From contig WFQU01000129.1 in the NCBI GenBank assembly GCA_015486845.1, positions 3,955-67,954 on the forward strand: DNA of 64,000 bases, in the 5' to 3' direction. Origin of the DNA: Anaerolineae bacterium (GTDB lineage: Bacteria; Chloroflexota; Anaerolineae; JAADDB01). This document shows, piece by piece, positions 2,510 to 63,903 of the stretch. The notes under the pieces are model-generated. The model did no database searches. It saw nothing but the letters and a program-made list of their open reading frames with translations, and was not told the DNA's origin. Every line of letters begins with the position of its first letter. Position 1 is the stretch's first letter. Both the position numbers and the translations under genes were made by a program.

Positions 2510-3463
2510 TCACGGCTTGAGCGTCGTGGCCACAATTACTTTATAGTCCAAGGGCTGGCTGATGAGTTTTTTGCTCAGCATCCAGGCGCTCACGTCTTTG
2601 ACCTCAGCCTCCGTAGGCAGTAAATTCACCGGGTAAGCCGGCACCTGATATTCCTTTTCGATGAAACCCGGCACCCGGCCTTTTTTCACCAGCAAAGGTT
2701 TGTATTTGTCGGGATGAGCATTGATCTCCGCGGATGCTTTGTACCACGCTTGCATAAATTTGGCTATATTGTGCGGCTTGGCGGCCAACGATTCAGTTCG
2801 AACAGCGAGCACAGATTGGGAAAACTGCGGATACTGGCTATCGTCCACAATCAGCTTCGCGCCTTTGGCGATAGCGCCGCTGGCCAGCGGCTCCGGCAAA
2901 GTCGCTGCAGCCACTTTGCCTTGCATCAAGAGCTCGAAACGCACCGGAATTTGCGTCACTTCGGTAATGCGAATATCCTTCGATGTCAACCCTTTCGCTT
3001 CCAACAGACGATCGGTAACATATTCGATGATAGTGTGCTGGGAAATAGCCACCGGCACGCCTTTCATAGCAGCCGGGCCGATGATATGGCCGCCGGGCGC
3101 GGCTAATATCCTGAACTGCGGCATTTTAGCCGTAGCGTGCATGAGCGTGCCGACAACTTTCAGCTTAGCTGTATCCTTATCAAACAGCCCCACGCTAATC
3201 AAATCCGTCAAAGCTCCGTCAACTTGCCCGGTCTGCAAAAGCGTGTCGCGTTCCTGGGCGCTTTTGACAAAAATCGCTTGCACTTGCAGTCCCTCGGCAG
3301 CAAAATAACCCTTATCTTGAGCCACGTAATAGGGCAGCGCGTCCATAATGGGCAATAACGCCACTTTAATGGATGTGTCTTCCTGCTTTTGACAAGCCAC
3401 CGTAGCCGGCAACAACATGGCTATAACGAGCAATAACAGCATCGAACGTTTCACGAAATACAC
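2510..3463 (-). CDS. ABC transporter periplasmic substrate-binding lipoprotein, NMT1/SsuA/TauA-like (nitrate/sulfonate/bicarbonate family)
   Basis: Signal peptide plus lipobox (LPATVAC) and an SsuA-like fold pattern. 317 aa. Confidence 0.65.
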   Translation of the reverse strand: MYFVKRSMLLLLVIAMLLPATVACQKQEDTSIKVALLPIMDALPYYVAQDKGYFAAEGLQVQAIFVKSAQERDTLLQTGQVDGALTDLISVGLFDKDTAKLKVVGTLMHATAKMPQFRILAAPGGHIIGPAAMKGVPVAISQHTIIEYVTDRLLEAKGLTSKDIRITEVTQIPVRFELLMQGKVAAATLPEPLASGAIAKGAKLIVDDSQYPQFSQSVLAVRTESLAAKPHNIAKFMQAWYKASAEINAHPDKYKPLLVKKGRVPGFIEKEYQVPAYPVNLLPTEAEVKDVSAWMLSKKLISQPLDYKVIVATTLKP

Positions 3464-4612: not shown

Positions 4613-4739
4613 CTCTCTTCATTGCTCCTTGTCTGCTATCATTTTGCGCTTAGTAAATCATAAATCGGCATAAATGTCCAACACGGAGCATTTCCCCTTT
4701 AGCTATTCAACGCCTGCGAGGAGGTGCACTTCTAAACAG

Positions 4740-5016
4740 GGAGTTATCATGAGCCTATGGCACACCACAGCGGCTGAAAACGAAGCGGCTGGTGTCAAGC
4801 CTTTAGGTGGGTTGGTGGGTCTACCACCGGCTAAAGCCTCGATGCCGGTACGGTGGCGGGGTACGTCAAAGTTGCGTCCGCTGCCAAAAGGCTGCTCAAC
4901 ACTAGCCCCCTTTCAGGGGGCTTCTTGGCGACGTAGCACGGGGATTTGACCCCCGTGCGCTCGGGCGGAGAACGCTGTCGATTAGAAGTTCAACTTCTCG
5001 CAGAAGTTGAACTTCT
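4740..5016 (+). repeat. Composite dispersed repeat made of module S (gagttatcATGagcctRYggcRcaccacagcggMtgaaaa), the 200-bp module R2 and the terminal palindromic hairpin H
   Basis: About 85 to 90 percent identical to the copies at 22210..22400 and 50211..50471, and to the inverted copy at 16014..16200. It ends with GAAGTTCAACTTCTcgcAGAAGTTGAACTTC at 4985..5015. The track ORF 4674..4949 lies inside this repeat and is probably spurious. Confidence 0.85.
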
Positions 5017-5059
5017 TAAAGATACTCTGCGCCTTTGCGCCGCTGCGTCAACTGATTTT

Positions 5060-5150
5060 CAAGGGAGTTATCATGAGCCTACGGCGCACCACAGCGGATG
5101 AAAATTAAGATCAGCGTGCATCAGCGTTAATCTGCGTTCTATTTTCAGAG
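5060..5150 (+). repeat. Second, shorter repeat block: module S followed by leader module L' (gatcagcgtgcatcagcgttaatctgcgttctattttcagaggag)
   Basis: Same motif set as 50527..50590, 25390..25435 and 45308..45335. Confidence 0.8.
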
Positions 5151-5190
5151 GAGATAATTCTTGGATGCTTACCAAGACAGTTTTGGGCCG

Positions 5191-15725: not shown

Positions 15726-16013
15726 CCGTCTTTGAAAAAAAGACCTCTCCCCTGGCTTGCCGCCCAAAGGGGCGGCAAGCCTCCCCCTCCCCGTATCGGG
15801 GAGGGGGAAAAGCTAAGCGCAGCGCCTTCAAATTAGTCGTGTCATTGCGAGCGAAGCGACAGTGTGATCCTCTTTTTGGTCAAGCAATCTCCAATGATAG
15901 TGAGAGAGAGTGCCACGGCCCTGCCGGGCCTCGCAATGACAAACTTCTCTGAAAATAAGTTGATGCAGCAGCGCCAAGGCACAGGGCGTCTAAAAAAATC
16001 AGGCCTCCTTTTA

Positions 16014-16200
16014 GAGGTTCAACTTCTTCAAGAAGTTGAACCTCTCCGGCGTTTTCCGCCCGAGCGCACGGGGGTCAAATCCCCGTGCTACGTCGCCAAG
16101 AAGCCCCCTGAAAGGGGGCTGGCGTTGAGCAGCCCGTTTGCAGCGGATGCTGCCTTGACGTACCCCGCCGCCGCACCGGAATCGGAACCGCATATCCTCA
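16014..16200 (-). repeat. Inverted-orientation partial copy of the composite repeat (hairpin H plus module R2)
   Basis: GAGGTTCAACTTCTtcaAGAAGTTGAACCTC at 16014..16044, followed by the reverse complement of the R2 core (ccgcccgagcgcacgggggtcaaatccccgtgctacgtcgccaagaagccccctgaaagggggct...). Confidence 0.8.
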
Positions 16201-22055: not shown

Positions 22056-22400
22056 CTAGAAGTTCAACTTCTTCAAGAAGTTGAACTTCTAGAACGGCAA
22101 CATCTGCAAAATCGCCCTACGGCGATTAGCATGCAACCTGCGTAGGCAAGTTTCGCAGCTGTGGCAGCGATTTCTAATCGCAGGGCGAAGCAGCCTGTGT
22201 TGACCTACGTCCCATTCCGGTGGGCCGGCCCCTTGCCGCCGCGGCGGCGGGGTACGTCGGTCCGCTGCCAAGAGGCTGCTCAACACCAGCCCCCTTTTAG
22301 GGGGCTTCTTGGCGACGTAGTACGGGGATTTGACCCCCGTGCGCTCGGGCGGAGAACGCTGTCGATTGGAAGTTCAACTTCTCGCAGAAGTTGAACTTCT
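22056..22400. repeat. Repeat cluster made of hairpin H (22056..22093), an inverted R1-family copy (22089..22200), an R2 copy (22210..22365) and a second hairpin H (22369..22399)
   Basis: The sequence ctaGAAGTTCAACTTCTtcaAGAAGTTGAACTTCtag is followed by acatctgcaaaatcgccctacggcgatt..., then the R2 core and GAAGTTCAACTTCTcgcAGAAGTTGAACTTC. The track ORFs 22089..22286, 22161..22394 and 22280..22494 lie inside the repeats. Confidence 0.85.
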
Positions 22401-22514
22401 TTAAAAAATTGACCACGCATGTTGTTGTTGCCTGGAACGTTGTCGGCGTTGGGGATAGTTTTGCGCCAATCAGCCATGACATAACGGAGTCCATTTTTGA
22501 CTATTGTTTTTTTA

Positions 22515-22566
22515 TCTGCGTGCGCAGCCTGCGTTAATCTGCGTCCTATTTTTATTTTCAGAGGAG
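22515..22566 (+). repeat. Leader module L (ttatctgcgtgcgcagcctgcgttaatctgcgtcctatttttattttcagaggag), positioned 75 nt upstream of the fabD start
   Basis: Near-identical blocks occur at 50715..50782 (where it supplies the secG Shine-Dalgarno) and at 59135..59203. Confidence 0.8.
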
Positions 22567-22641
22567 ATTGATTTTAATCTCTGCACCTTAGCGGCTCCGC
22601 GTCGAGCTTTTAGTTCCGGCCTGTCCCGGTTAGGAGAATTC

Positions 22642-25284: not shown

Positions 25285-25435
25285 ACGGCAACAATCTGCA
25301 AAATCGCCCTACGGCGATTAGCTTGCAGCCTGCGCAGGCAGGTTTCGCAGCTGTGGCAGCGATTTCTAATCGCCGGACAAGGCAGACTGCGTTAATCAGC
25401 GTTCTATTTTCCAGAGCATTCTATTTTCAAAGGAG
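25285..25435. repeat. Inverted R1-family copy (caacaatctgcaaaatcgccctacggcgattagcttgcagcctgcgcaggcaggtttcgcagctgtggcagcgatttctaatcgcc...) fused to leader module L' (gcgttaatcagcgttctattttccagagcattctattttcaaaggag), which ends 10 nt before the next start codon
   Basis: Direct comparison with 2128..2503 (reverse complement) and with 22089..22200. Confidence 0.8.
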
Positions 25436-25444
25436 ATTGTTTCA

Positions 25445-44765: not shown

Positions 44766-45363
44766 CTCTATTTTATTGAGACATGGGCACAAAAGTATAG
44801 CATAGCAAAACGTTTTCTCAAAAGCGTAGTTGCTAATAACCTCGGGCTATTGGTATAGCCAGTCGTGACTCATCCGAAAACAGGCTCACCGCGGAATACG
44901 CAACGTGCGCCGCGGTCAAATTAGTGTGATTTTAGCAACTATTTGCTTCCGAAACTGTAACTGCTCGTTTCTGATAAAACAGTGGCGCCGGCACGGGCCG
45001 GCGGCCGGCCTGTGCCGGCACGCAGACAGGCGCACCATAGCGGCTGAAAACGCCCCCTATCCCCCAACCTTGGGGGGAGCAACATGCCCCAGCCCTCCGA
45101 AAAAGGGTCTTGGCTACGCCGGATCTGGTTCGTTGCGGGCAGCACTCCCTCTCGCCACGCTGCGGTCTGCCGCTATCCTGTTGGCAACGAGCGCATAGCC
45201 CGTGTTGTCGTCGTGCGTTGGTATGCGCTTAATCGTGGCTAATCGTATGAGCCGGGTCTGATAACATGAATTTTCGTGTTGCTGGCGTAATATATTTGAG
45301 ATCAGCGTTGATCAGCGTTCTATTTTCAAATGAAACAAAATTGCTGGTCGCAAGCAGCTTTGT

Positions 45364-48454: not shown

Positions 48455-48556
48455 GTTATCATAAGCCCGACAAGGTGGAGAAGTTCAACTTCTGTCAGAA
48501 GTTGAACTTCTCCACCGGAAAGTTTTCTTGACGCTTTGCGTCGGCTATTTTCAAGG
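48455..48556 (+). repeat. Repeat block made of a partial module S, hairpin H (48479..48510) and leader module T (ttttcttgacgctttgcgtcggctattttcaagggacagc), ending 6 nt before the birA ATG
   Basis: GAAGTTCAACTTCTgtcAGAAGTTGAACTTC. The T module also occurs at 52955..53020 upstream of the PBP gene. Confidence 0.8.
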
Positions 48557-48562
48557 GACAGC

Positions 48563-49342
48563 ATGGAAGAACGAATACCGCCGTTGACGGACGCCATTGC
48601 TTGGCGTTGGCGACGGCTGGACAAAGTTACATCCACGCAGGATATTGTCCGGCGTGAGGCGGAAGCCGGCGCGGCAGCGGGGCTAATTTTGTGTGCTAAT
48701 TGGCAATCCGCCGGCCGGGGGCGTTTGCAGCGCCGTTGGGAAAGCGCCCCCGGCGCCGCGCTGCTCTGTTCACTGTTGGTGCGGCCAATAGCGTTGCCCG
48801 CTCAGCAGGCCGCCCATTTGACCATGATCACAGCGTTAGCACTGGCGGATGCCGTTGCCGAGACGGCCGGCGTGCAGCCGGATATCAAATGGCCCAACGA
48901 TCTATACCTGCAAGGACGCAAATTAGCCGGCATCCTGACAGAAACGCAGATAGACGCTAATAATGTGCAATGGGCAGTCATCGGCTTCGGGCTGAACTTG
49001 CGGCGCAGTTTTCCAGAAGGGCATCCCTTGGCCCGGCAGAGTATTGCTTTAGCCGAAGTCTGTGGGGCCGTGCCGGAACGAGAAACTTTGTTGCGGGCCG
49101 TCGTGTTGCATTTAGCCGCATCTTGTCGCCGCCGGCGCGCGGGCTGGTCTCCGCACAGAGCATGGCAGCAGCGATTGCTGACACTGGGCCGCGAGGTAAC
49201 CGTCACAGCGGGGGCTAAACGATGGCACGGCACCGCCGTGGGAACGACCTCCGCCGGCGCGCTGCAACTGCGTCTGCAAAATGGGTCGTTACGAGAAATA
49301 TGGGCAGGTGAGGTCACGCTAAGTGCCTCGATAGGAGATTAA
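48563..49342 (+). CDS. birA: Biotin-[acetyl-CoA-carboxylase] ligase (catalytic and C-terminal domains, no N-terminal HTH)
   Basis: BPL motif (QSAGRGRLQRRWESAPGAALLCSL), KWPND. Confidence 0.8.
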   Translation: MEERIPPLTDAIAWRWRRLDKVTSTQDIVRREAEAGAAAGLILCANWQSAGRGRLQRRWESAPGAALLCSLLVRPIALPAQQAAHLTMITALALADAVAETAGVQPDIKWPNDLYLQGRKLAGILTETQIDANNVQWAVIGFGLNLRRSFPEGHPLARQSIALAEVCGAVPERETLLRAVVLHLAASCRRRRAGWSPHRAWQQRLLTLGREVTVTAGAKRWHGTAVGTTSAGALQLRLQNGSLREIWAGEVTLSASIGD

Positions 49343-49470
49343 ACCAGCCGCTATTTGTCTCCGCCACGGGCAATATTTGACAGGCACGCTGCCTTATCAT
49401 AGGATTGTGGATGAAATGCTATAGTGTTACGGTAATGTAATTTTCAAGAGAGTAAAGGGGTAAGAAGTTA

Positions 49471-50210: not shown

Positions 50211-50782
50211 TTGTCACAAGCCCGCCACAGCGGCTGAAAAACTGCGGCTGGTGTAAGCCTTTAGGTGGGTTGGTGAGTCTATTACCGACTAAAGCTTCGA
50301 TTCCGGTACGGCGGCGGGGTACGTCAAGGTAGCGTCTGTTGCCAAGAGGCGACTCAACACCAGCCCCCTTTCTGGTGGCTTCTTGGCGACGTAGCACGGG
50401 CCTTTGACCTCCGTGCGCTTGGGCAGGGAACGCCGTCGATTAAAGTTCAACTTTTTGAAAAAGTTGAACTTCTTAAAGGAGACCTGATTTTGAAGGGACT
50501 GTTTCCGTATTGCCTGCGTAATATATTTGAGATCAGCGTTAATCAGCGTTCTATTTTCAAGGGAGTTATCATGGGCCTGCGGCACACCACAGCGGATGAA
50601 AACCTATGGCTGGACTCGAGCCTTTAGGCGGTTTTGTAGCGTTACCCCCGGCTAAAGCCTCGAGTCCGGCGCAATGGGAGCTATTTTCAGGGGAGAATCT
50701 GTTACTAATTTCTTGACCATTGTTTTTTATCTGCGTGCGCAGCCTGCGTTGATCTGCGTCCCATTTTTATTTTCAGAGGAGG
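50211..50782 (+). repeat. Largest repeat cluster in the window. It contains module S with the R2 copy (50211..50440), hairpin H (50443..50471), a second S with leader L' block (50510..50610), and leader module L (50715..50782), whose AGGAGG is the secG Shine-Dalgarno sequence.
   Basis: Direct alignment with the copies at 4740..5150 and 22160..22566. The upstream part of track ORF 50674..51012 is repeat sequence. Confidence 0.85.
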
Positions 50783-50790
50783 TTTTGAGA

Positions 50791-52683: not shown

Positions 52684-52701
52684 ACACGGTAACATTGGTG
52701 A

Positions 52702-52733
52702 GACGTTCAACTTCTCAAAGAAGTTGAACGTCT
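52702..52733. repeat. Hairpin H variant with compensatory outer-stem changes (GACGTTCAACTTCTcaaAGAAGTTGAACGTC)
   Basis: Same invariant core as the other copies. The outer base pair has switched from A:T to C:G. Confidence 0.85.
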
Positions 52734-52954
52734 TCACCGGAAAGCTCCGTGCTACGTTAATGGGAAGCCCCCTTCAGGGGGCTGAAGTCACGCAGCCCGC
52801 TTCAGCGGGCTTGGACTTGCTGTAGCCCGGCGGCTTTAGCCCCGGGCAGGTTTGCGGTGCGGCTTCAATTGCGGTTGTGATCAGCGGCAATGAATTAGGT
52901 GCCCCTGATGCGGCAGATTTAATCCTGAGACGGCAGGTCACGGACCTGCCTGGA

Positions 52955-53020
52955 ACGCGGCAAAAAGCTTTTTTGACGCTCGGCGTCTTTGCGGCTCAGC
53001 GTCGGCTATTTGCAAAGGGA
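52955..53020 (+). repeat. Leader module T (ttttttgacgctcggcgtctttgcggctcagcgtcggctatttgcaaagggag), ending 13 nt before the PBP1A start
   Basis: Homologous to 48521..48556. It supplies the GGGAG Shine-Dalgarno sequence. Confidence 0.75.
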
Positions 53021-53033
53021 GTCATAGAACGTT

Positions 53034-57861: not shown

Positions 57862-58692
57862 ATGTGGCGCTCTCCGTGGTGCGTGGGTGCGTTCATCAGC
57901 AGTTGCATCGTAAGTGCGGCGTACTGGCGGCGTGATCTTTCCCTTAGCGGCCTGTTCGCAGCGTTCCTTTTGGGATTATTCGTTTATGTCGCCGGCGGCG
58001 TCGTGTGGAGCATTGTTTTGGTCGCATTCTTCCTTTCCGCCTCGGCGCTCTCACATGTGCAAACGGCCAACAAACGGAGCGTGATGATCGCATTTGCCAA
58101 AGGCGGGCAGCGGGATGCGGCACAGGTATTAGCTAACGGTAGTATCGCACTGTTAGCGGCATTGTTTGTGCTCTGGTCAGGCCGGTGCGGTCTGGGCAGC
58201 AACACAGCCTGGCTAATTTTCTTGGCTTCTCTTGCCGGGGCCACAGCGGACACCTGGGCCACAGAAATTGGCACGCTTCGGCCGGGAGAGCCCCGTTTGT
58301 TGACGACCTTGCAATCCGTGCCGGCCGGTCGTTCCGGCGGCGTGACCTGGCTGGGCTCGCTTGCGGCGCTCGGCGGAGCAAGCTTCATCACTTTGACGGC
58401 GTGGGGCGCACTGCTATTGTGGCCGGGGCCGTGGCGATTTTCCGCCGAGCTGGCTATATGGGGCATTCTCGCCGGCCTGGTCGGCTCCTTTGTGGATAGT
58501 CTCCTCGGCGCCACCCTGCAAGCCCAGTATTTCTGCCCCCGTTGCGCAAAAATCACCGAAGCCCGCGTGCATCATTGCGGCACGCCGACCATTTACCGGA
58601 GCGGTTGGCGCTGGCTGAACAACGATTGGGTGAACTTCTTCAGTCTGTGTGCCGCTGCCGTCGTGGTCATCTTCGGCTCCCTGCTTTTCTGA
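57862..58692 (+). CDS. DUF92/TMEM19-like integral membrane protein. The assignment is tentative.
   Basis: About 270 aa with 6 to 7 transmembrane helices and a KGGQRDAAQVLANG motif, consistent with DUF92. Confidence 0.5.
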   Translation: MWRSPWCVGAFISSCIVSAAYWRRDLSLSGLFAAFLLGLFVYVAGGVVWSIVLVAFFLSASALSHVQTANKRSVMIAFAKGGQRDAAQVLANGSIALLAALFVLWSGRCGLGSNTAWLIFLASLAGATADTWATEIGTLRPGEPRLLTTLQSVPAGRSGGVTWLGSLAALGGASFITLTAWGALLLWPGPWRFSAELAIWGILAGLVGSFVDSLLGATLQAQYFCPRCAKITEARVHHCGTPTIYRSGWRWLNNDWVNFFSLCAAAVVVIFGSLLF

Positions 58693-58704
58693 GAAGACAT
58701 CATG

Positions 58705-59205
58705 AGACTACGGCCTGCCTTGTGCGCTGCGCGCGGACAGGCACACCATAGCGGATGAAAGTCGGCCGATAGCCGGTAGGCGTTCGCCGTTAGCAAATAT
58801 ATAAGCGGACGTTGCTGGAGCATTAATCGTGGGGAGCTGAAGCCGCACCGAAAGTGCCTGCAGCCAGGCGACCACCTACGTGGTCGCGACGACGCCAACG
58901 CACAAGAGCGAGACATTCAACTTCTGAGAGAAATTGAATGTCTGCACTGCGGTTGAAACCGCGGCACAGGAAACCGGCAAAGCAGTTCGCCCGTGCGTAG
59001 TGCAGTTTTGGCTGCTGGCAGCTGGAGCTTAGCCTTTTGGCAGCCTGGAAGCGTCGACACCGGCTAAAGCCTCGACTCCAGTGCTGGGGAAAGTGTCGCA
59101 CTTTTTTCGCGACGACATCTTCGGGATCGTTTTTTGACCGTTGTTTTTTTATCTGCGTGCGCAGCCTGCGTTTATCTGCGTCCCATTTCATTTTCAAGGG
59201 AGGGC
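58705..59205. repeat. Repeat cluster made of an S-like module (58705..58760), hairpin H variant GACATTCAACTTCTgagAGAAATTGAATGTC (58912..58942) and leader module L (59135..59203)
   Basis: Alignment with the other copies. It marks the boundary of an islet that looks lower in GC. Confidence 0.8.
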
Positions 59206-59555
59206 GGTGGCCGTCATCCCGTGCCAGGAACTGCGAGAGAGCGTGTTTAAGCAAGTACGGTAGAGACATAGCAAATAATCATCCAATGTGGTAAAATATA
59301 GGTGATAATTCATAAAGATTTTGCTGAACGACGAGTCCGAATCAACAGTATTGATCGCTCGTTCGATCTGGAATTTCGGAGTAAACAAACACACCAGGCG
59401 CGTTTTGACGTAGCCTGGACATTGGCCACTCATGCAAACAGGGTCAAGGGGTTAGCTGTTCGTCAACTCCGACTTCACCAACCCATTGAGGTTTTTCGAC
59501 GTTTACAGCGTTAAATACCTTGTGATCGTGAGTATATTATTCAAGGAGTCAAGTC

Positions 59556-59786
59556 ATGCCTTCAACAGCCATCGCGACGGTGGAGAGGATGTTAGAGCCT
59601 TTGCCGGAAGAAGCGCAAGAGCGAGTCGTAGAACACCTGCGAGAGTATATTTTAGACCTGGAGGATGAACTTCTGTGGGACGATCAATTCAGAAGCACGC
59701 AGGACAAGCTTATCATGGCAGCCCGCCGTGCCAAGAAAGAGATTGCTGCTGGCAAAGCGGAACCCATGGACTTTGAACGACTATGA
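59556..59786 (+). CDS. Type II toxin-antitoxin system antitoxin, partner of a RelE/ParE-family toxin
   Basis: 76 aa, acidic N-terminus and a C-terminal ...AARRAKKEIAAGKAEPMDFERL tail, typical of antitoxins that pair with this toxin clade. Its stop overlaps the toxin start (ATGA). Confidence 0.55.
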   Translation: MPSTAIATVERMLEPLPEEAQERVVEHLREYILDLEDELLWDDQFRSTQDKLIMAARRAKKEIAAGKAEPMDFERL

Positions 59787-60063
59787 AGTCGGCCACGTTA
59801 CCCTCCTTCTGGGAAGCCTATGCCTCCCTTGGCGAAGACGTCAGACGCCAGGCGAGGAAAGCCTTCGATTTATGGATTCAGAACCCATTTCTCATCCATC
59901 TCTGCACTTCAAGTGCATCAATTGCGAGGAAGATATTTGGTCTGTCCGGATAACCCGACAATATCGTGCAGTAGGTGTCTGAGAAGTAGGTGTCTGAGAA
60001 GGAGATGTCGTCACCTGGTTTTGGATTGGTCACCATGACCATTACCAACGCTTCTTTTCGTGA
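59783..60063 (+). pseudogene. RelE/ParE-superfamily toxin gene disrupted by a 1-bp deletion (frameshift at about 59888..59892) and a 15-bp tandem duplication (59971..60000) that introduces in-frame TGA codons
   Basis: Frame 1 reads MKSATLPSFWEAYASLGEDVRRQARKAFDLWIQNPF. Frame 2 reads HPSLHFKCINCEEDIWSVRITRQYRAVGV*EVGV*EGDVVTWFWIGHHDHYQRFFS*. Together these rebuild a canonical toxin of about 90 aa (...NP..LH.K......WSVRI...YRA.......WFWIGSH..Y). Confidence 0.6.
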
Positions 60064-60408
60064 TCGAGTCCGTTTATCGCTCCGAAATGTCAAAGACAAG
60101 CCATCGCACTTGCCGCTGTTCTCGTATTTAGGCCAGTTTGTCATCCAGACCCATGGTTTCGTCGCCGAGAAGGAACATGGTAAGATGGGCCCAGCAGCCA
60201 GCAGCAGCCGGGTTATGATCCTGGATTCTTTGTCAAACTCGAGAAACTGGAACATGCCATGTCAGACAAGTATCCGTACTATCTCTTGGCACGTCATTTT
60301 CAGATCGTTGCAACTAAGCCTGGAAATGATGTAGGTCTTTAGGCAACACAATCAATGGTCAATGTCATGTCAAACTGAATTAGGCCGCCGCTGGCGAGAA
60401 AGTGAACA

Positions 60409-60981
60409 TTGCAAATGACTTCTATCTCTGAGAATCAGAAAGCTCGAATAATTTCTTTGCTCCAGGAAAGGCAACTCGGCCGCGAAGAGATCGCAGCGAA
60501 AGTCGGCGTTTCTCCCGGAACGGTCAGCGCAATCAAGGCGCATGTGACGATGGGTACTTACGGGACGGCCTCTAATCCCGAAACAGAAACCGACGAGCTT
60601 ATCGATGCTGCCGAAACAACATTTGGACTTGAACGTGATTTACAGCTTGCGTTGCGATCGAACATCCAGCAACTCGAAGATGGGCTCACTATCATTGATG
60701 GTGGCAAGGAATGCGTTACCGACGCAGGCAGAATCGATATTCTTGCCCGAGCCCTAGATGATTCGATTGTTGTGATTGAATTGAAGGCGGGGATGGCTTC
60801 CCCGGCAGCTTTGACCCAACTCTTAGCCTATATGGGAACCATCAACGAGCAGGGCAAGGCAGTGCGAGGAGTTTTAGTAGCAGGCGACTTTCATCCACGC
60901 GTTGTATTCGCGGTGAGAGCTGTGCCCCGTGTGAGGTTGTACCGATATCGTTTCAAATTCAATTTTGAGTCAGTGGAGTAA
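60409..60981 (+). CDS. N-terminal HTH domain fused to a DUF91/NucS-C-type PD-(D/E)xK nuclease domain
   Basis: HTH (EEIAAKVGVSPGTVSAI). C-terminal ...GRIDILARALDDSIVVIELKAGMASPAALTQLLAYM...VRGVLVA... matches the D...(D/E)xK core of NucS/DUF91-like nucleases. Confidence 0.5.
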   Translation: MQMTSISENQKARIISLLQERQLGREEIAAKVGVSPGTVSAIKAHVTMGTYGTASNPETETDELIDAAETTFGLERDLQLALRSNIQQLEDGLTIIDGGKECVTDAGRIDILARALDDSIVVIELKAGMASPAALTQLLAYMGTINEQGKAVRGVLVAGDFHPRVVFAVRAVPRVRLYRYRFKFNFESVE

Positions 60982-61117
60982 GTTCCAGGCTACAAGAGAT
61001 CTCATTACAGCTGCTTCCGCTCGACCGCGATTGCACTGGCATTCAAGCAGCCGTCCGAACCTGATCACAAGCTCGCCCACCGCCAAACCTATTAAGGACA
61101 TAAGACAGAGAGAAAAA

Positions 61118-61810
61118 GTGAAAACACTCATCGTCATGCCGCTGCCGGAAGAAATGGCACCATTCATGGAGCTTTGTGCGGCTAAGTCCATTCGGTTAGA
61201 GGCTGCTACGATAGGAAAACTTGATGTAACACACTGTCCAGATTTAGACCTGACGGTGGCTAACGGCGGTCTCGGCAAAACGCAGTTCGCGATACAGGTG
61301 CAGCACTTGCTGGATTTTTCTCCAGATTTCGATCTGGTTATTTGTGCAGGGGCGGCCGGGGCGTTAGATGATCCTCTCACCATCGGGGATGTGGTGATCG
61401 CAACGGAGACAGTGGAATACGACATTTACAACGGATTCGCAACACCGTTGCTGCCCCGGTACCCCAGCGACGAAAGCGTTCGTAACTCGTTTAGAGAAAT
61501 ACCGTTTGGAGAAAATGCTTTTCGGGTGCATTTTGGGCCCATTGCCAGCGGGGACGAGGATATTGTCGGTATCGAGCGAAAAAAGGAGATTCAAAGAAAA
61601 ACAGGTGGGCTGGCGGTAGCCTGGGAAGGGGCCGGAGGTGCCCGTGCTTGCCAGTTCAACCGGGTACCCTACCTGGAAATTCGAGGTGTGACGGACGATG
61701 CCGATGGAACTGCTTTGACGGATTTCAAGAAGAATCTGCCGGCAGCCATGCGTAATGTAGCGGCGGTGATTTTAGCCTGGGCTGAGAGACAGAAGGCGGC
61801 ATCATCATAG
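61118..61810 (+). CDS. MTA/SAH nucleosidase family protein (PNP_UDP_1 fold; an MtnN-like or MqnB-like futalosine hydrolase)
   Basis: GTG start. The pattern TLIVMPLPEEMAP...ICAGAAGAL...IGDVV...GDEDIV...AVAWEGAGGARACQFNRVPYLEIRGVTDDAD parallels the MtnN catalytic core. Confidence 0.6.
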   Translation: MKTLIVMPLPEEMAPFMELCAAKSIRLEAATIGKLDVTHCPDLDLTVANGGLGKTQFAIQVQHLLDFSPDFDLVICAGAAGALDDPLTIGDVVIATETVEYDIYNGFATPLLPRYPSDESVRNSFREIPFGENAFRVHFGPIASGDEDIVGIERKKEIQRKTGGLAVAWEGAGGARACQFNRVPYLEIRGVTDDADGTALTDFKKNLPAAMRNVAAVILAWAERQKAASS

Positions 61811-61856: not shown

Positions 61857-62282
61857 ATGACCAACAAAGATGACGATTTCAGGATAGAACGGGATTCCAC
61901 GGGCGAAATCGCTGGGCCGGGCGGCGCACTTTATGGCGCCGAGACCTAACGCTCTGTAGAGCTCAGCGGTTAGTTGAAGCGGGTGGTGGCGTCGTTGCGA
62001 AAAATCGCCCAGGATTTGTGCTGGATGAACTCAGTGCCCGTTTCCGGCCTGGCCGAGATCCAGTTGCCGGCGTTGCAGCCCGGTTCGTCCATCATGCCGG
62101 GCAAAATCAACCCGGTCATCCCGGAAGCGGTCATTCAGGGGACAACGCAAGTCATGGGGCAAGACCTGATCGTGACGGTGAGCGGGGCCATGGGCAATTT
62201 TCAACTCAATGTCATGTTGTCCGTCATAGCAAATGGCGATTGTTCTACTATAATTGATCTACATTGCAATTACCGGCAGTGA
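61857..62282 (+). pseudogene. Remnant of a class II fumarate hydratase / aspartate ammonia-lyase gene. The N-terminal 30 codons are intact, followed by stop codons and an in-frame internal deletion of about 250 codons, then a fragment carrying the [11 protein letters not shown] signature that is C-terminally truncated.
   Basis: MTNKDDDFRIERDSTGEIAGPGGALYGAET* matches the FumC/AspA N-terminus. 61974..62282 encodes ...[20 protein letters not shown]...GNFQLNVM..., the fumarase/aspartase signature region. Confidence 0.65.
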
Positions 62283-62392
62283 CGCGAACAAGTATCAAAA
62301 GGTCTGAGTTATCACTGTTTCTCATTGAGCAGTCAAATGCCAGGGACTCCCCTGGGCCACAGCATTCAGTTGATTTCATGAAGGAGGGAAGT

Positions 62393-63271
62393 ATGAACGT
62401 ACCCAATTTGACCGAACACTTTTTGGAGTTGATCCGGCGTTCTTCCACCGACTTGCCGGCGGACGTCGAAGCCGCTTTGCGACGGGGCCGGGATCAGGAA
62501 GAAGAGGGATCGGCGGCGCAGGCGGCATTAGACACCATTTTGCAGAACGTGCAAATGGCGCGCGAGCTCTCCACGCCGATCTGCCAAGATACTGGCACGC
62601 CTATTTTTTACGTCTGGTATCCCACAGGCTGGAGCACCCTGCCGTTGAAAGCCCAGTTATTAGAAGCTACGCAGCAGGCCACGCGGAAATACTATTTGCG
62701 CCCCAATGCAGTGGATTCGCTAACGGGCCGAAATTCCGGTGACAACACTGGCATTGATTTTCCCACGATGCATTTCATCGAGTGGGAAGCAGATTACTTA
62801 CAGGTCAAATTGGTGCAAAAAGGTGGCGGCAGCGAGAATGTTTCCCGGCAATACACCATTCCCAGCGCCGAATTCGCAGCCAGCCGTGACCTGAAAGGGG
62901 TGCGCAAAGCGATTTTGGATGTTGTTTGGCGAGCACAAGGAAAAGGTTGTGCACCGGCAGCCGCCATTGGCGTGGGCATCGGCGGCGACCGCGCTTCTGG
63001 CATGATGAAAGCCAAAGAACAACTTTTCCGCAAGCTGGATGATATCAACCCAGTGCCGGAACTGGCCCAATTCGAGCAAGAAATGTACGAAGAACTGAAT
63101 CAACTGGGCATTGGCCCCATGGGTTTCGGCGGCAAAACCACCGTTTTGGGCGTGAAAGTGGGCACAGCACACCGTTTGCCGGCGTGTTATTTCGTTTCTA
63201 TTGCCTACATGTGCTGGGCAGACCGGCGTCGGACACTGACCTATCGTGACGGTCAGGTTACCATCGAATAA
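62393..63271 (+). CDS. Class I (Fe-S) fumarate hydratase / L(+)-tartrate dehydratase, alpha (N-terminal domain) subunit
   Basis: The start MNVPNLTEHF follows an AAGGAGGG ribosome-binding site. Fe-S hydro-lyase alpha pattern (CQDTGTPIFYV...). Confidence 0.85.
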   Translation: MNVPNLTEHFLELIRRSSTDLPADVEAALRRGRDQEEEGSAAQAALDTILQNVQMARELSTPICQDTGTPIFYVWYPTGWSTLPLKAQLLEATQQATRKYYLRPNAVDSLTGRNSGDNTGIDFPTMHFIEWEADYLQVKLVQKGGGSENVSRQYTIPSAEFAASRDLKGVRKAILDVVWRAQGKGCAPAAAIGVGIGGDRASGMMKAKEQLFRKLDDINPVPELAQFEQEMYEELNQLGIGPMGFGGKTTVLGVKVGTAHRLPACYFVSIAYMCWADRRRTLTYRDGQVTIE

Positions 63272-63282
63272 GGAGGGGCAAA

Positions 63283-63903
63283 ATGGCTGTTTACAAACTG
63301 ACTGTGCCGATTAGTGAAGAACAAATTCGTGCCCTCAAAGTGGGGGACCAGGTGCTGCTGAGCGGTGTTATTACCACCGGCCGTGATGCTGCACACAAAT
63401 ATATGATCGAGAATTTCATTCATAGCGACGCCGTACCGCCGGAAGAAGAAGCGCTCTATCACCGCCTGCAAGAGATATTGCACGAGGGCGTAATCTACCA
63501 CTGCGGCCCGGTGGTGGGTCAGCGAGAGGACGGCAGCTACTACTTCGTGGCCGCCGGCCCTACCACCAGCATTCGCGAGGAGCCGTACGAAGGGGAAGTC
63601 ATCGGCCATTTCGGCATGCGGGCTGTGATCGGTAAAGGCGGTATGGGACCCAAAACGCTGGCGGCGTTGCAAAAGAACGGCGCTGTGTATCTACACGCTG
63701 TGGGCGGCGCCGCGACCCTCATCGCTCAGTCTGTCAAGGAAGTCGTCGAAGTGCACAAAATGGAGTTCGGCGTGCCGGAAGCTTTTTGGGTAATCCGGGT
63801 GGAAGATTTTCCCACCGTTGTGACCATGGATTCCCACGGCAACAGCATCCACGAAAAGATAGAAGAAGCGTCTAAAGTTCAATTAGAGAAGTTGCTGGCG
63901 TAA
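63283..63903 (+). CDS. Class I fumarate hydratase / tartrate dehydratase, beta (C-terminal domain) subunit
   Basis: Fe-S hydro-lyase beta pattern (GDQVLLSGVITTGRDAAHK...GKGGMGPKT). 206 aa. Confidence 0.85.
   Translation: MAVYKLTVPISEEQIRALKVGDQVLLSGVITTGRDAAHKYMIENFIHSDAVPPEEEALYHRLQEILHEGVIYHCGPVVGQREDGSYYFVAAGPTTSIREEPYEGEVIGHFGMRAVIGKGGMGPKTLAALQKNGAVYLHAVGGAATLIAQSVKEVVEVHKMEFGVPEAFWVIRVEDFPTVVTMDSHGNSIHEKIEEASKVQLEKLLA

Follow-up and report, generated by a model that had tools for sequence, protein, structure and literature searches.

The window, by which we mean the whole stretch of 64,000 nucleotides that was analysed, carries two overlapping genes on its plus strand between positions 59556 and 60063, the first coding for an antitoxin and the second being the remnant of a toxin gene. 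The names 'toxin' and 'antitoxin' are used here because of homology, predicted fold and gene architecture, and on these grounds the pair is assigned to the type II toxin-antitoxin (TA) cassettes. The following features make up the cassette:

59543..59548, plus strand: Shine-Dalgarno-like AAGGAG, 7 nt before the antitoxin ATG, read from the sequence
59556..59786, plus strand: antitoxin gene of 76 aa with an ATG start, an open reading frame (ORF) without interruption
59783..59786, plus strand: overlap of the antitoxin stop and the toxin start (ATGA) seen in the sequence, the translational-coupling architecture of the family
59783..60063, plus strand: toxin pseudogene, remnant of an 87-aa ParE_like (PF24732) toxin, defined by Pfam, tblastn and alignments

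A preliminary description of this DNA had reported an uninterrupted antitoxin whose stop overlaps the toxin ATG, and both statements were confirmed. The ATGA junction is also found in most of 80 homologous loci, for example in the Ardenticatenia contig L004, which shows the same gene order and the same 4-nt overlap. A protein search retrieved 252 relatives of the antitoxin with up to 86% identity, none of them with a Pfam domain, and in 93 of the best 120 among these 252 homologues the length is exactly 76 aa. The antitoxin of the window likewise matched no Pfam or NCBIfam family. It keeps all invariant and nearly invariant columns of its own family, with 0 deviations at the 32 columns conserved at 95% or more. 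The AF2 model (pLDDT 88.9) predicts two helices, a short one at residues 4-13 and a long one at residues 18-64, and a C-terminal tail that is flexible and conserved. No match for the antitoxin was obtained in the PDB, neither by sequence profile nor by fold, the Foldseek search being blank because the model is essentially one long helix. An antitoxin of this kind, small, helical and devoid of any DNA-binding domain that could be recognised, presumably recalls PaaA2, a likeness that is taken as a lead only. When the antitoxin profile was run against 1.84 billion representatives, 516 clusters, defined at 50% identity, were obtained, none of which brought an annotation, and Pfam analysis of the longer matches was uninformative. 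The top match of this search was a protein of 4072 aa with 30 matched stretches, which may be repetitive or helical. A scan of 58600..60500 for sigma-70 promoters and terminators gave counts equal to the shuffle expectation, and as the sigma-70 consensus did not rise above it, no promoter was assigned.

The assignment of the second gene to the RelE/ParE toxins, likewise made in the preliminary description, agrees with both the profile search and the predicted YoeB/RelE-type fold. The conceptually repaired translation matched Pfam ParE_like PF24732 at profile positions 2-66 of 67 with 36.6 bits (E = 4.5e-9; gathering threshold, 24.4 bits), and its intact homologues carry PF24732 as a precomputed assignment. 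The NCBIfam Txe/YoeB equivalog TIGR02116 gave 12.9 bits, which is below its cutoff of 51.8. A protein search yielded 598 toxin relatives, the closest being 82-83% identical to the repaired toxin and 87 aa long; the best 120 of these 598 homologues measure 86-94 aa, and 108 of the 120 have exactly 87 aa. For P0001, the intact toxin closest to that of the window, the AF2 model (pLDDT 92.1) consists of helices at residues 7-14 and 18-33 and of strands at 43-46, 51-57, 60-67 and 70-78, and thereby presents the N-terminal helical hairpin on a three- to four-stranded antiparallel sheet that characterizes the RelE/ParE superfamily. Foldseek comparison of this model with the PDB returned YoeB, RelE, RelK and YafQ first (E down to 3e-6, TM 0.70-0.78), and the 29 matches with E ≤ 1e-3 were essentially all toxins of the RelE/YoeB/YafQ type. 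A PDB sequence search with the toxin profile gave nothing meaningful, and the predicted resemblance to YoeB is one of fold only. Throughout the toxin family K43, E49, R55, R61, H79 and Y82 are kept at 95% or more, a set of residues that would suit an RNase. A literature search on PF24732 retrieved no paper, and experimental reports were found neither for this toxin family nor for the antitoxin family.

With the YoeB, RelE and RelK mRNA interferases, which depend on the ribosome (PDB 2a6r, 3bpq, 3oei, 8yxv), the cassette shares a toxin of about 85 aa, the antitoxin-first order and the overlap of the two genes, and the modelled toxin has in common with them the two N-terminal helices, the four-stranded antiparallel sheet and the C-terminal His/Tyr segment. 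It differs from them in that sequence identity is only 16-23%, that the partner belongs to neither the Phd/YefM nor the RelB antitoxins and that the RNase activity is putative. The ParE gyrase poisons (PaaA2-ParE2, PDB 5czf) share the predicted superfamily fold as well, and it is Pfam ParE_like that is matched; in the fold search ParE2 ranked below the YoeB/RelE structures (E about 2e-3, TM 0.59-0.67).

With the family consensus as the tblastn query, 59783..59890 corresponded to toxin residues 1-36 and 59893..60060 to residues 37-87, so that the remnant lies in two frames and not in three, as had been supposed at first. From the ATG at 59783 the translation reads MKSATLPSFWEAYASLGEDVRRQARKAFDLWIQNPF and then departs from the family sequence, the frame changing directly after ...DLWIQNPF, just as noted before. 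The shifted ORF continues for 20 out-of-frame residues after F36 up to a stop at 59951..59953, which yields an ORF of 56 aa (59783..59953). In the second frame the sequence is HPSLHFKCINCEEDIWSVRITRQYRAVGV-stop-EVGV-stop-EGDVVTWFWIGHHDHYQRFFS-stop, the two internal stops being in-frame TGAs at 59980..59982 and 59995..59997. Alignment of the DNA with five intact toxin genes revealed one insertion of 2 nt and one of 15 nt in the window and no others. The remnant bears three lesions:

59890..59893, plus strand: lesion 1, TC doubled to TCTC, a +2 frameshift after codon 36 (F36), from the alignments
59980..59982, plus strand: lesion 2, a nonsense TGA at toxin codon 66, from the protein and DNA alignments
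59971..60000, plus strand: lesion 3, an exact 15-bp tandem duplication of GTAGGTGTCTGAGAA (59971..59985 and 59986..60000), from TRF and the DNA alignment

The preliminary description had counted two lesions and had ascribed the frameshift to a T missing from a T-run. The protein alignment with 17 homologues and the DNA alignment with the five toxins both contradict this and indicate a 2-bp insertion of TC. In 17 of the 17 aligned homologues the motif NPFHPSL has no residue between F36 and H37, and it is restored when one TC is removed from TCTC at 59890..59893. Deletion of a single T would instead give NPFSHPSL and a protein of 88 aa with an extra residue that is absent from all 17 aligned homologues. 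The gap placement chosen by MAFFT, in which AT is removed, would turn the invariant F36 into Ser, and removal of TC was preferred.

The third lesion to be added to the earlier count is the TGA at codon 66, which is separate from the duplication and older than it. Among 108 homologues this codon specifies Leu in 80, Phe in 20, Met in 5, Trp in 2 and Val in 1, and TGA is one step away from TTA, which is present at this position in locus L015, or from TGG. The metagenome locus L127 has acquired an independent stop at the same toxin codon. The exact 15-mer tandem with a TGA in each copy was found as previously described; the duplication had been taken as a killing lesion, but it is not the source of the stop, as it is in frame and a single copy already contains the TGA. 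It copies codons 63-67 (V-G-V-stop-E) and thus gives rise to the second TGA, and because it carries a copy of the nonsense codon it is, most parsimoniously, later than the nonsense mutation. The chance expectation for exact 15-bp tandem pairs in 64 kb is about 6e-5 (64000/4^15). TRF reported a period of 15 and a score of 66 and carried the array on to 59970..60009 (2.7 copies), since 8 of the 10 bases of AGGAGATGTC, which comes next, agree with the start of the unit, AGTAGGTGTC; this imperfect direct repeat (AGGAGATGTC/AGTAGGTGTC), 15 bp apart, could have templated slipped-strand mispairing. Small tandem duplications account for two of the three toxin lesions. The frameshift costs the protein all its β-strands along with the conserved H79 and Y82. 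The comparison with intact homologues, which the preliminary description had recommended, therefore upheld the dead toxin but changed the inventory of its lesions, and the annotation of the locus should read an antitoxin gene followed by a toxin pseudogene, instead of the spurious ORFs of 56 aa, 99 aa and 105 aa.

The exact antitoxin protein was encountered on three further contigs (ENA ERZ23495671, Logan SRR10312495 and ENA ERZ23495180), which are 99.8-100% identical to the window across the locus, without gaps, and in which all three lesions are present and the antitoxin shows zero differences. These contigs are metagenome assemblies from different pipelines (ENA and Logan) and from at least two samples; they may share one study site and are thus independent assemblies, not necessarily independent populations. 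One of them, L003, is 3 SNPs away from the window and therefore represents a different strain, with one variable position in the remnant of the toxin:

59941, plus strand: polymorphic site in the toxin remnant, T in the window and C in L003, Ser53 TCT to Pro CCT, from the contig alignment

Ser53 (column S54 of alignment A1) is identical in 18 of 18 rows. Assembly errors can produce short indels and small tandem duplications, and all available data are metagenomic assemblies, which would allow the lesions to be artefacts of sequencing or assembly and the toxin to be intact in the organism. We consider this highly improbable, as all three lesions recur in three other contigs, which were obtained with different pipelines, stem from two or more samples and include a strain that differs by SNPs. 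A nonsense substitution is moreover atypical of assembly errors, and three independent errors within 110 bp next to a clean antitoxin would be extraordinary. The toxin gene is a pseudogene, carrying lesions that disable it in comparison with five intact genes and that recur in three assemblies, and we are highly confident that the combination of a dead toxin with an intact antitoxin is real.

Some toxin could still be made at a low level if programmed recoding took place, with a frameshift at TCTC and read-through of both TGA codons. TGA is the leakiest of the stop codons and the shift site follows a T-run, but nothing specific favours such a scheme, which would demand that a single round of translation combine a frameshift with read-through at two stops. 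No homologue is arranged in this way, the intact genes among the best 120, including the 108 of 87 aa, being plain ORFs; an Rfam search of the whole window detected no RNA family, including tRNA, and no recoding element; and the other decayed loci of the family bear lesions that are different from and unrelated to those of the window. Recoding is thus hardly conceivable at this locus.

The preferred reading, a toxin inactivated beside an intact antitoxin, is best accounted for by the following course of events. A horizontally spread type II TA cassette, encoding a predicted helical antitoxin of 76 aa and a toxin of 87 aa belonging to the RelE/ParE superfamily, lies in an Anaerolineae-like Chloroflexota chromosome. 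Its toxin gene was hit by three small lesions of independent origin, namely a presumed slipped-strand insertion by which TC became TCTC after codon 36, a nonsense TGA at codon 66 and, later, a presumed slipped-strand tandem duplication of 15 bp that copied the nonsense codon. Lesion 1 or lesion 2 alone would remove the whole β-sheet and the conserved C-terminal His/Tyr and leave no active toxin, this loss of activity being predicted from the structural model for a family whose toxicity is itself putative. Once the toxin is dead, the module should no longer addict the cell, and the antitoxin would be free to be lost or kept; here it is still entirely intact, and its ribosome-binding site is a good one.

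Lesions aside, the toxin remnant shows 0 deviations at the 36 columns that are conserved at 95% or more in 108 homologues. As no strongly conserved toxin residue has changed, the toxin was inactivated recently on an evolutionary scale. Nonsynonymous distances from the closest relatives are much the same for the antitoxin (0.08-0.11) and the toxin (0.10-0.12). In dN/dS comparisons of the window genes with the closest loci for which DNA was available (L004-L006, L013 and others) synonymous sites were saturated (dS > 2 or undefined), and hence no branch-specific dN/dS was derived for the window antitoxin or the repaired toxin; in intact pairs the median dN/dS is about 0.10 for both genes. The locus can serve as a clean and datable pseudogene at an early stage: its lesions number three, two of which are slipped-strand duplications, and its conserved residues have not begun to drift.

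The frequency of such losses was surveyed with the antitoxin profile in one genome per species (GTDB representatives), followed by inspection of the sequence downstream of each match, which left 80 loci that could be assessed and whose antitoxin ORF is full-length. Profile matches came from Chloroflexota, Poribacteria, Cyanobacteria, Syntrophobacteraceae and one archaeal MAG. The toxin was intact in 48 of the 80 loci and broken or missing in 32 (40%). In eight of these 32, as in the window, nearly the full length of the toxin gene is left but is broken by a frameshift, a stop or an insertion; eight retain partial remnants, two keep 25 codons or fewer, and the remaining 14 gave no remnant by tblastn. 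In several of these 14 loci the ATGA is still there, with a few codons from the start of the toxin gene. A reciprocal scan of metagenome contigs with the toxin profile showed a full-length 76-aa antitoxin ORF beside 69 of 69 intact toxins, counting those metagenomic toxins with room upstream, and several further toxin matches with in-frame stops each adjoin an intact antitoxin. Both families thus occur together across unrelated genomes, and decay that strikes the toxin first, as the preliminary description had proposed for this locus with its inactivated toxin and intact antitoxin, is the rule in the family. A toxin cannot outlive its antitoxin, while the reverse case is harmless, and for this reason the asymmetry is in line with theory and with earlier work. 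As a survey result for this TA family, about 40% toxin-less loci versus 0 of 69 antitoxin-less ones, it also provides indirect genetic evidence that the PF24732 protein is toxic and the 76-aa protein its antidote.

[quoted passage not shown] The asymmetry is strong there as well as here (32/80 versus 0/69), toxin-only pseudogenes being common and antitoxin-only ones rare (PMC13617665). The locus of the window resembles the erosion of chromosomal type II TA systems, such as ccdO157 in E. coli and those of Photorhabdus (PMC13617665), in that small mutations or truncations kill the toxin and the antitoxin ORF persists. It differs from these in its toxin and antitoxin families and in its host phylum, Chloroflexota, and the toxin and antitoxin activities are putative here. 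The locus adds one ordinary example to the recognised two-step erosion that chromosomal type II TA systems undergo, a phenomenon that is well known and very common in this family.

Orphan antitoxins and anti-addiction have been reviewed, with a parE pseudogene in Caulobacter and a yacB frameshift in Shigella as examples (PMC7354431), and in these, as in the window, an intact antitoxin adjoins a defective cognate toxin; the likeness is one of genes, and expression and cross-neutralization are putative here. Selection could likewise have kept the orphan antitoxin of the window, as an anti-addiction or immunity factor against incoming related toxins or against those of an intact paralogous cassette at another site of the genome, a possibility to which we give less than even credence and which would refine the main explanation and not replace it. 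Besides the conservation of all family residues and the strong Shine-Dalgarno sequence of the antitoxin, it is favoured by the movement of the cassette family between phyla, which makes encounters with related toxins plausible, and by one orthologous locus in Poribacteria at which toxin loss can be followed. There, about 60 toxin codons are left in L059, 17 in L057 and about six or fewer in L051, L060, L027 and L032. The pairs L051/L060 and L027/L032 each have a toxin deletion common to both members and are collinear at 90-93% nucleotide identity, and their antitoxins are full 76-aa ORFs with dN/dS values of 0.22 and 0.32, which are based on 7-10 nonsynonymous and about 8 synonymous differences, that is on fewer than 20 substitutions per pair. 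These values fit, as a hint, continued but relaxed constraint on the antitoxin. The counts are tiny, however, and an ω two to three times that of intact pairs would also fit relaxed constraint as such; in the lineage of the window itself dS is saturated, no second copy of the family was found within the 64-kb window, and a young pseudogene beside a still-unmutated gene of 231 bp is expected by chance. More tentatively still, the antitoxins of this family may outlast their toxins by a long time, serving on their own as immunity (anti-addiction) genes against a cassette that passes promiscuously from phylum to phylum. Should this be true, the window would represent the first step of a recurrent route of domestication; about 40% of the species-representative loci have already become toxin-less, and the Poribacteria orphan has survived speciation with a dN/dS of about 0.1-0.3.

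The host is an Anaerolineae-like member of the Chloroflexota, as judged from homologues of the DUF92 protein encoded upstream of the cassette. Beyond 59556..60066 there is no similarity to other TA loci, and neither flank resembles any of the loci fetched; as the similarity ends at the borders of the cassette, the two-gene cassette itself seems to be the mobile unit. Notable direct repeats flanking it were not detected. The DUF92 gene ends at 58692, and the spacer of about 860 bp between it and the antitoxin gene consists for the most part of a mosaic of intergenic repeat modules of the dispersed kind, which recur across the window and are overlain by a 148-aa minus-strand ORF from the gene caller that belongs to no family. 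The flanking ORFs at 58823..59269 (minus strand), 59302..59514 (plus strand), 60035..60334 (plus strand) and 59878..60255 (minus strand) had no Pfam match and were therefore treated as probably spurious. In the nearest relative, whose DUF92 protein is 69% identical, the DNA is collinear at 79.5% nucleotide identity up to the DUF92 stop, and its two contigs end about 175-300 bp past DUF92, in repeat sequence; the next relative (DUF92, 56% amino acid identity) has unrelated genes downstream. The cassette had also been described as the left edge of an islet of low GC. A modest dip does exist, the GC content of 59001..61400 being 0.499 against a window mean of 0.537 and among the lowest 2.3% of 2.4-kb windows, but it begins at about 59000, some 550 bp before the cassette and within the repeat-rich spacer, and the islet is weakly supported. 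A stretch of still lower GC content (0.482) lies elsewhere in the window, near 49400.

At one orthologous chromosomal locus shared by six genomes of Candidatus Poribacteria (L051, L060, L027, L032, L057 and L059, in each case at about 3001-3420), the remnant of the toxin gene was found to be graded across species, shrinking from 60 to 17 and then to about 6 or fewer codons, and the 76-aa antitoxin ORF was intact in all six. Pairwise comparison of the antitoxin genes between members sharing a common toxin deletion gave dN/dS values of 0.2-0.3.

Elsewhere among the homologous loci, a few toxin codons have repeatedly been struck by independent nonsense mutations. These are as follows.

L127: stop at codon 66, the identical codon to that of the nonsense mutation in the window
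L062, L066 and L084: toxin ORF ends after residue 72, directly before the invariant Trp73
L105 and L114: nonsense mutation at Trp31
L148: nonsense mutation at Trp52
L141: nonsense mutations at two further codons

This recurrence probably reflects the fact that codons for Trp (TGG) and Leu (TTA/TTG) lie a single step away from a stop. In L040, a locus from a Chloroflexi MAG, the main cassette is preceded at a distance of ∼1.3 kb by a second, divergent toxin-like ORF (1683-1934, 41% identity), and paralogous cassettes are therefore able to neighbour each other.

A 99-aa ORF (60035-60334, + strand), predicted by gene callers in two public assemblies, starts within the 3'-terminal part of the window's toxin remnant. 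The Pfam scan assigned it to no family, and it showed no similarity to the DNA located 3' of the other cassettes compared; it is probably an annotation artefact arising from the decay of the toxin. Two further genes lie immediately 3' of the dead toxin and within the lower-GC stretch, and may constitute a small defence-type islet.

60409-60981, + strand: HTH and NucS_C/PD-(D/E)XK nuclease-like protein, matching PDC-S02, a candidate defence family of PADLOC (E = 1e-17)
61118-61810, + strand: PNP_UDP_1 nucleoside phosphorylase-like protein, weakly matching an 'Effector' model of PADLOC (description: PN-superfamily)

Further downstream, the class I fumarate hydratase genes (62264..63271 and 63283..63903) are immediately preceded by a short ORF of 85-102 aa (61974-62282, + strand), which matched Lyase_1 (PF00206) and also contained an 11-residue motif, the fumarase/aspartase signature. 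As enzymes of this type are ∼460 aa long, as against the 85-102 aa available here, this ORF looks like a gene fragment or a second pseudogene.

In intergenic regions of the window, a mosaic of several recurring short repeat modules was observed, distributed as listed below.

58700-59210, intergenic: site between DUF92 and the cassette
about 4700-5160, 16013-16055, 22058-22570 and 25294-25440, intergenic: further sites
about 45271-45337, 48479-48570, 50245-50790 and 52701-53029, intergenic: further sites
Module: hairpin AGAAGTTCAACTTCT-N4-AGAAGTTGAACTTCT, 10 copies
Module: 62 nt, GGCTGG...AGCCTTTAGG...CCGGCTAAAGCCTCGA, 4 copies
Module: TTTTTTATCTGCGTGCGCAGCCTGCGTTAATCTGCGT...TTTTCAGAGGAG
Module: ATCATGAGCCTACGGC...CACAGCGGATGAAAA

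Related modules occur in the nearest relative 3' of its DUF92 gene, where both of its contigs stop. By their appearance, these dispersed modules look like REP/MITE-like elements of the host lineage, and the 148-aa ORF called across them in the window (58823..59269, − strand) is probably spurious. Apart from these modules, the window carries a tandem repeat at 2125-2529, composed of about 2.7-3 copies of a 135-bp unit, the first two copies of which share 97% identity.
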